From: Escherichia phage EF3-1
Sequence record: PQ571291
Reading direction: 5' to 3' (one strand)
DNA length: 50,066 bases
A program made the translations under genes and the position numbers. The notes under the pieces were generated by a model. It was not told the origin of the DNA. It did no database searches and saw nothing but the letters and a program-made list of their open reading frames with translations. Numbering within the stretch: position 1 is the first letter of the stretch; every line of letters begins with the position of its first letter. Positions 29,622-29,831 of the stretch are shown piece after piece.

Positions 29622-29831
29622 TTACCAGGGAATATAATCGTCGTCGTCCTCATCAATATCATCGCCAGGTAACTCGAAGTTTGGATTATATTCGCTTTCC
29701 GCGTCCATATCCATATTCCCTAGCGCGTCCTCAAGTGTGATTTCTTTATATGCAACCTTGATACACCATTCCGCACTAAGCCCGGCATCAAGAGCGGCAA
29801 AATAACGAGTCCAGAAATTATCCCGTTCCAT
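29622..29831 (-). CDS. small highly acidic protein (69 aa; DNA-mimic/anti-restriction candidate)
   Basis: C-terminus ELPGDDIDEDDDDYIPW; overall strongly acidic; SD GGAG. Confidence 0.55.
   Translation of the reverse strand: MERDNFWTRYFAALDAGLSAEWCIKVAYKEITLEDALGNMDMDAESEYNPNFELPGDDIDEDDDDYIPW

Follow-up and report, generated by a model that had tools for sequence, protein, structure and literature searches.

A candidate SSB-tail mimic encoded upstream of the helicase gene in the T1-like Escherichia phage EF3-1

Introduction

The C-terminal tip of SSB (single-stranded DNA-binding protein) serves as a central hub of bacterial genome maintenance and has been proposed as an antibiotic target. 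On binding, a hydrophobic pocket takes up the terminal Phe of the tip, a basic lip holds its carboxylate and a basic ridge accommodates the aspartates; deletion of the Phe abolishes binding. The ssb113 exchange of Pro for Ser weakens the interaction, at least 11-20 residues of linker have to precede the tip, affinities for partner proteins are micromolar, and SSB tails can also fold back onto their own OB fold (PMC10164576). Besides cellular partners, phage annealases read host SSB tails (PMC13490951). In this study, we analysed a gene for a small acidic protein of 69 amino acids (aa) in the genome of Escherichia phage EF3-1 (sequence record PQ571291), whose C-terminal end resembles the SSB tip. 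The window, i.e. the whole stretch of 50,066 nucleotides that was analysed, represents a complete T1-like genome (Drexlerviridae, Tunavirus).

Tails of this kind are also found on phage replication proteins. In phage T7, both the SSB gp2.5 and the helicase-primase gp4 carry acidic, Phe-terminated tails that dock on the T7 DNA polymerase. A very different use of acidic residues is made by Ocr (T7 gp0.3) and ArdA, which are rigid, fully folded dimers displaying their carboxylates in a DNA-like pattern. For T1, a classic phage, the takeover of the host replisome without an own polymerase is poorly understood.

The EF3-1 protein resembles the SSB C-terminal tip (SSB-Ct) in its Ile-Pro-aromatic ending and in a linker that is predicted to be disordered and is long enough to carry the tip, and conservation is highest for the Pro at -1 and the terminal aromatic residue; its acidic run is set off from this ending by a Tyr. 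Unlike in SSB, the tip is carried by an acidic helical body of 45 residues and not by an OB fold or any DNA-binding domain; furthermore, the protein ends in Trp (Phe in relatives) with a Tyr before the Ile, and some relatives contain a cysteine knuckle or end in IPFW. The design recalls T7 gp2.5 and gp4, in that an SSB tail is duplicated by an acidic tail which is associated with a helicase and ends in an aromatic residue. Here, however, this tail is part of a separate protein encoded two genes upstream of the helicase, and its receptor would be a host protein because the phage appears to be polymerase-less. Ocr and ArdA are likewise small, very acidic phage or plasmid proteins, but no sequence, profile or fold similarity connects them to the 69-aa protein, half of whose chain is predicted to be disordered and whose hydrophobic tip is conserved. 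We tentatively propose that the 69-aa protein acts as a mimic of the SSB tail, whose most likely function would be to link the helicase module of the phage with host SSB-interacting proteins.

Results

An acidic two-part protein under purifying selection

The open reading frame (ORF) at positions 29622-29831 of the minus strand translates into MERDNFWTRYFAALDAGLSAEWCIKVAYKEITLEDALGNMDMDAESEYNPNFELPGDDIDEDDDDYIPW and ends with ...ELPGDDIDEDDDDYIPW, with Trp69 being directly followed by TAA. A preliminary description of this DNA had reported an acidic 69-aa ORF at exactly this place, as part of a leftward block and acidic throughout. Our analysis agrees on these points: the product contains 20 Asp/Glu and 4 Lys/Arg residues (net charge -16, pI 4.05), both the N-terminal domain (-6) and the tail (-10) are negatively charged, and the gene shares its leftward block with the DUF3987 helicase. 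Among the 114 ATG-initiated ORFs of at least 60 aa in the window, it encodes the most acidic protein.

The ORF is a real gene under purifying selection, with a whole-gene dN/dS of 0.10 across nine T1-like copies (Nei-Gojobori). Regional values for the same copies were 0.064 for the N-terminal domain, 0.16 for the linker (residues 46-64), which is the highest, and 0.09 for the tip. The dN/dS of 0.1 backs the minus-strand frame, for which reason we rejected an antisense or non-coding feature at 29622-29831. The 4-kb stretch around the gene matched 151 phage records, the best with 91-95% identity. At the protein level, identity is 100% to bas13_0048 of phage LeonhardEuler and 88% to ST6 of T1, both annotated as hypothetical, and all 61 close homologues are located in contigs of T1-like size or in shorter fragments. 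The protein belongs to PHROG 9085, of which it represents a full-length member (E 6.6e-46, residues 1-69 on profile positions 1-69 of 69).

AlphaFold2, run with a 20-sequence alignment, predicted four short helices (residues 6-15, 20-27, 33-38 and 42-45), followed by a low-confidence coil from residue 46 to 69 that is left undocked on the helical domain. The N-terminal domain is recognisable by the family signature AGL[NS].E....VA......L..ALG.MDMD.ES, with G17, V26, A36, L37, G38 and E45 invariant in 25 divergent members. A Foldseek search of the model against the PDB gave no match with an E-value below 5, and the BFVD fold search returned uncharacterised relatives only. An OB-fold or SSB profile was looked for in the 69-aa protein with Pfam, PHROGs and NCBIfam, and none was found. 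Given the absence of such a profile and a predicted fold of four short helices, the protein is not an SSB but merely bears an SSB-like tail. DNA binding by a helix-turn-helix in the N-terminal domain was also considered, as the spacing of A13, G17 and L18 is reminiscent of this motif, but it was rejected for a domain with a net charge of -6.

Conservation of the C-terminal tip

To describe conservation across the family, short forms were counted as clusters of 55-110 aa. An ending of the type x-P-[F/W] or PFW was present in 111 of the 118 short-form clusters and, outside the T1-like group, in 47/53. Among T1-like copies, YIPW is nearly invariant and Ile67-Pro68 fully so, while the preceding acidic residues vary; in the 69-aa protein itself, Tyr66 sets the DDDD run apart from I-P-W. 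Over the 25 divergent members, the Pro at -1 is conserved to at least 90%. Position -2 is nearly always occupied by I, L, F, V or M, resulting in the endings IPF, IPW, LPF, FPF, VPF and MPF, and several relatives come close to SSB itself (LDDIPF in P0120, KDEIPF, NEIPF and DDGIPF). In contrast to the tip, the charge of the tail ranges from -1 to -11 over the family, and the linker sequences cannot be aligned across subfamilies.

Within the C-terminal half, it is thus the hydrophobic tip that is conserved most widely. Acidity is a trait of the T1-like subfamily, whereas the tip spans the short forms. Since the tip is kept while the tail charge varies, what selection seems to preserve is a peptide-in-pocket motif and not a pattern of charge. 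A terminal motif that is retained while the linker drifts is, at the level of sequence comparison, the signature of a pocket-docking peptide.

Within the otherwise unalignable linkers, a second short motif, E[YF][ND]P[ND]F, recurs in several subfamilies. In EF3-1, it comprises residues 47-52 (29676-29693, minus strand), and the long forms of the family carry a version reading DGFDPDL. This motif may be a second docking element.

Likeness to the SSB tip and occurrence of DDDIPW on other proteins

Comparison with the SSB-Ct revealed the terminal aromatic residue, the Pro at -1, the aliphatic residue at -2 and the flexible linker in the 69-aa protein. The phage also encodes an SSB of its own, the last seven residues of which (FDDDIPF) are identical to the tip of E. 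coli SSB; this protein scored below the Pfam SSB threshold and showed a weak match to TIGR00621 in the tail region.

With regard to the Trp that takes the place of the terminal Phe, viral contigs (IMG/VR) were scanned for D-D-D-I-P-W-stop. At least 120 loci (L018-L137) were found, compared to a rough chance estimate of the order of 1-10. OB-fold SSBs were called by phmmer with the OB domain of E. coli SSB as query. The DDDIPW loci listed included 24 OB-fold SSBs (25-member cluster), an Enc34/gp2.5-type ssDNA-binding protein (PF10991), a gp32-like protein (PF08804), a gp4-like primase-helicase with DnaB_C and Toprim domains (L091), a DUF6511 protein and several small families without annotation. 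As bona fide OB-fold SSBs end in DDDIPW, IPW can be regarded as a natural SSB tip, and its presence on unrelated proteins suggests a portable module carried by varied replication proteins including a helicase. The same list also contained a 40-member cluster of 77-122-aa proteins without annotation.

Other known C-terminal motifs were considered and rejected. Mimicry of the FtsZ C-terminal peptide (DYLDIPAFL) does not fit a motif that is strictly C-terminal and whose Tyr is not conserved outside the T1-like copies. A beta-clamp-binding motif was dismissed because the tip contains neither a Gln nor a QL[SD]LF pattern, and periplasmic recognition of a YxF-type C-terminus because the protein has no signal peptide.

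Gene order around the helicase module

In EF3-1, the genes follow each other as 74-aa ORF, 69-aa gene, 138-aa ORF and DUF3987 helicase (Table 1). The order of the 69-aa gene, an optional Dcm-type methylase gene, the 138-aa homologue and the helicase is kept in five other loci, namely Escherichia phage NBD2 (Vilniusvirus), Klebsiella phage Call (Webervirus) and three metagenomic phages, and it persists down to about 43% identity of the 69-aa protein. Homologues of the 138-aa protein are found in the same position in L002, L003, L139, L141 and L142, and homologues of the 74-aa ORF precede the 69-aa homologue in NBD2, Klebsiella phage Call and L139.

Scanning the large ORFs of the window revealed a primase, two helicases, SSB, Erf, a RecE-like exonuclease, a VRR-NUC protein and Dam, and no DNA polymerase was found among them. 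Besides Dam, the phage carries a Dcm-type methylase.

Proposed role and competing explanations

Under the reading that we tentatively favour, the 69-aa protein would be a two-part docking protein, in which residues 1-45 form an acidic helical domain and a flexible acidic linker (about 16 residues) leads on to the tip DDDDYIPW. The tip would copy the logic of the SSB-Ct, with acidic residues followed by an aliphatic residue, a Pro and, at the end of the chain, an aromatic residue whose carboxylate is free, and would enter the pockets on SSB-interacting proteins that normally take up the SSB tail. The helical domain would hold a partner from the helicase module in trans, i.e. the 138-aa protein or the DUF3987 helicase, while the tail captures a host SSB-interacting replication factor. 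This factor could be the Pol III clamp loader's chi subunit, primase or PriA; the receptor is sought among host factors because the phage appears to lack a DNA polymerase of its own. We infer the binding of the tip, the identity of the partner and the direction of the effect (recruitment or blockade) from the features described above.

Tethering is favoured because of the synteny with the helicase module and because helicases with such tails in cis exist, as exemplified by T7 gp4 and the DDDIPW-ended L091 protein. Moreover, the phage SSB keeps the canonical tip, which suggests that the phage uses the SSB network rather than blocking it.

Should the same tip compete instead of recruit, the protein would be a decoy that occupies the SSB-tail pocket of host proteins such as ExoI, RecQ, RecG, RecJ or PriA. 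These would be uncoupled from SSB-coated DNA, so that intermediates of phage recombination and replication are protected or host repair is shut down, with the helical domain adding affinity or specificity for the chosen target. We consider such competitive inhibition possible but rather unlikely, although it is the foremost of the alternatives. The evidence from the tip applies to it just as it does to a tether, the helical core is common to unrelated phage families of the same host group, which suggests a host partner, and the gene is broken in some phages (vB_SsoS_008, P0063 and P0132). Small acidic phage proteins are, in addition, typically inhibitors. SSB molecules, on the other hand, number in the thousands and are tetravalent, which speaks against a decoy. 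A monovalent competitor of micromolar affinity (PMC10164576) would be set against this tetravalent SSB and would also disturb the phage's own SSB with its canonical FDDDIPF; the tight synteny with the helicase module would be left unexplained.

It is improbable, in our view, that the x-P-[F/W] tip has a docking or regulatory purpose outside the SSB network, although the phage itself offers candidates. These would be pockets on its Erf annealase, RecE-like exonuclease or primase; further candidates are the beta sliding clamp, a protease or degron adaptor, or an intramolecular latch formed with the helical domain. Departures from DDDIPF, such as the Tyr insertion, the cysteine knuckle and the endings IPFW and FPF, agree with such a purpose, as does the reading of SSB tails by phage annealases (PMC13490951), given that Erf and a RecE-like exonuclease are present in this genome. 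Nevertheless, the tip is unlike known E. coli C-terminal degrons, the AlphaFold model leaves the tail undocked on the helical domain, and the closest motif by sequence and context is the SSB-Ct, which occurs in the same genome. Proteins bound by the sliding clamp follow the consensus QL[SD]LF, to which the tip does not conform.

The preliminary description had suggested a DNA mimic of the Ocr/ArdA type or an inhibitor, acting against restriction or other defence systems. In this case, the charge of the protein would imitate DNA and sequester nucleic-acid-binding defence proteins; as a variant, the acidic tail might imitate ssDNA and bind the OB fold of an SSB, as the tails of SSB do when folding back on their own OB fold (PMC10164576). 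The extreme acidity (-16, pI 4.05), the small size and the small neighbouring genes annotated without function are in line with this idea, which we nonetheless regard as the least probable of the explanations considered. No match to Ocr, ArdA or another mimic was obtained by sequence, profile or fold. Folding is predicted for 45 residues only, and disorder for the most acidic part; because of the disorder of residues 46-69, no rigid DNA-shaped surface is expected. A check of the predicted structure for a DNA-like body, judged from secondary structure and confidence values, accordingly yielded four helices and a disordered tail. Furthermore, the acidity of the tail is variable (-1 to -11) whereas the hydrophobic tip is conserved, the fixed position and wide spread in Drexlerviridae are unlike the patchy distribution of typical anti-defence loci, and the phage already possesses Dam and Dcm-type methylases. 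The conserved tip, the variable charge of the tail and the synteny would all be left unexplained by DNA mimicry. What stays plausible of the earlier suggestion is an acidic protein aimed at proteins of DNA metabolism, while the Ocr/ArdA type gained no support.

Several observations weigh against the tethering role. A canonical tip is already supplied by the phage SSB. The T1-type tip deviates from that of enterobacterial SSBs by the Tyr inserted before I-P-W and by its Trp end instead of Phe; in many relatives, IPF is immediately preceded by Cys-x-x-Cys and the charge of the tail is just -1 to -3, and five clusters end in IPFW, which misfits recognition of a Phe carboxylate because of the extra residue after the Phe. 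The long forms of the family (162-186 aa) possess neither the tip nor a DUF3987 neighbour; binding to the helicase module is therefore not a necessary property of the core. By tblastn, helicase homologues were detected in about 900 phage records and homologues of the 69-aa protein in about 500 Drexlerviridae-type records, which, at this sensitivity, does not show the family to be universal. Finally, the gene is disrupted in some phages and is therefore probably not strictly essential. The vB_SsoS_008 homologue (Shigella phage; L013 977-1183) has an in-frame stop at codon 44, and its record annotates a 98-aa fusion to the upstream ORF; in clusters P0063 and P0132 (phage DELF2), the N-termini are replaced or frameshifted and the tails are intact. 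Going by their sequences, these broken copies could represent either sequencing errors or a sign of dispensability.

If tethering or competition at SSB pockets applies, the 69-aa protein might be the founding example of a family of free-standing SSB-tail mimics, in which a docking peptide without a DNA-binding fold rewires the SSB interactome of the host. It would do so by linking replication factors of the host to a phage helicase that is itself unable to bind them, or by selectively detaching host repair enzymes from SSB. It would then be one instance of phages grafting DDDIP[F/W] onto unrelated replication proteins, a practice that seems to have gone undescribed and that we propose with the same reserve as the tether itself. 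Such a natural trans-acting ligand of the SSB pocket would reveal which host SSB-interacting protein the phage most needs to have captured or silenced, and the YIPW, CIPF and IPFW variants could provide a peptide scaffold for probing or inhibiting SSB-tail pockets. A function would also be assigned to a family of genes that hundreds of Drexlerviridae from phage therapy collections carry.

Transcription unit and repeated cassette

The features of the locus and the phage SSB gene are compiled in Table 1. The coordinates of the helicase refer to the longest ORF; an annotated relative begins about 20 codons further in.

Table 1. Coordinates of the 69-aa gene, its parts and related features in the window
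Feature	Position	Strand	Basis and remarks
Gene of the acidic 69-aa protein	29622..29831	-	ORF list and sequence; stop codon included; homologue of T1 ST6; PHROG 9085
Small helical domain, residues 1-45, net charge -6	29697..29831	-	AlphaFold2 pLDDT 75-88
Acidic linker, predicted disordered, residues 46-61 (~16)	29649..29696	-	pLDDT 55-61, no secondary structure
C-terminal tip DDDDYIPW, residues 62-69	29625..29648	-	Resembles SSB tip (E. coli ...DFDDDIPF)
Ribosome-binding site (RBS) GGAG of the 69-aa gene, within the 3' end of the 74-aa ORF	29839..29842	-	Read from sequence; 7 nt 5' of ATG 29831
74-aa ORF, first cistron of the two-gene unit	29835..30059	-	PHROG 4344, function not annotated
Degenerate cassette GATAGCACGAATAGCTAA (30120-30137) and hairpin GGGAGTAA..TTACTCCC (30086-30107) with TATAAT-like loop	30086..30137	-	
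Good cassette AATAGCACGATTTGTTAA (29605-29622) and hairpin AAGGTCA..TGACCTT (29572-29595)	29572..29622	-	
Basic 138-aa ORF between the 69-aa gene and the helicase	29125..29541	-	PHROG 2684; weak DUF7244 match
DUF3987-type DNA helicase	27480..29111	-	Pfam DUF3987 E 3.4e-42; PHROG 2373 'DNA helicase' E 9e-234
Phage SSB, 140 aa, Gln-rich linker	16228..16650	+	PHROG 44 'single strand DNA binding protein' E 1.4e-24

An 18-mer, AATAGCACTTTTTGTTAA, occurs 15 times in the window with up to three mismatches, compared to 0.09 expected occurrences. The sites are located at 2981, 19487, 19951, 22461, 29105, 29605, 31236, 31653, 32117, 33295, 34244, 36039, 39228, 42432 and 49141, and a degenerate copy lies at 30120. 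Every copy is intergenic and has the orientation of the gene downstream. About 15-20 nt past the 18-mer, a short hairpin with a TATAAT-like hexamer in its loop is found, followed by an RBS and ATG. The spacing is at odds with a standard -35/-10 promoter; the cassette may be a promoter with an unusual upstream element or the site of a regulator.

According to the preliminary description, the 69-aa gene would be expressed from its own cassette promoter, which the positions of the cassettes contradict. The good copy overlaps the stop codon of the 69-aa gene and serves the next gene, the 138-aa ORF, while the nearest cassette on the 5' side precedes the 74-aa ORF. This degenerate cassette is the sole promoter-like element 5' of the two-gene unit, with a site at 30120-30092 scoring 9/12. 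Between the stop codon of the 74-aa ORF and the ATG of the 69-aa gene there are only 3 nt, and a search for a sigma-70-like site between the two genes found none. As the cassette lies 5' of the 74-aa ORF and nothing promoter-like separates the genes, the 69-aa gene is the second cistron of a two-gene unit.

In T1, the 138-aa gene ST7 and the helicase gene ST9 are separated by an inserted HNH endonuclease gene, ST8 (L140 2086-2625). This HNH gene is absent in EF3-1, where the cassette alone separates the 138-aa gene from the helicase.

Relatives of the 69-aa protein

An exhaustive HMMER search of 1.84 billion representative proteins retrieved 32 relatives, and a profile search 111. The short-form relatives (65-102 aa) are 32-59% identical and have the N-terminal signature in common; their linkers are in some cases acidic and in many others contain a four-cysteine knuckle, CxC-x5-6-CxxC. 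In addition to PHROG 9085, the N-terminal half of the EF3-1 protein matches PHROG 9323, comprising the cysteine-knuckle forms, and PHROG 4823, comprising 185-aa forms of Ackermannviridae; none of the three carries a functional annotation. The helical core is also contained in the 162-186-aa proteins of Ackermannviridae and of another phage type.

A Pfam scan of the 69-aa protein (E up to 1) gave a chance match to SgrT alone (E 0.11), and the same scan of 25 family members revealed no recurring family. The NCBIfam scan of the 69-aa protein contained no informative match, and searches of PDB sequences with the single protein and the family profile were empty. In the literature searched as full text, neither the family nor a non-SSB phage protein with an SSB-like tip is described. 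The link between PHROG 9085, 9323 and 4823 and their common C-terminal tip is absent from the annotations and literature searched.

Knuckle forms (e.g. DCGCRG...C..C) make up most members outside the T1-like group, with the cysteines placed directly before IPF, FPF or IPFW. Examples are P0067, P0073, P0077, P0079, P0089, P0090 and P0093-P0116, as well as L002 2501-2734 and L003 2483-2722. The position of the cysteines suggests that in these forms a zinc-bound presentation of the tip may replace the acidic leash. In three clusters (P0117-P0119), the cysteines are kept and the tip is gone.

About 20 records named 'Campylobacter phage' (e.g. A123, 50 kb) bear a T1-type helicase (about 57% identity) together with homologues of the 69-aa protein. 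These records look like Drexlerviridae and may be mislabelled or contaminants.

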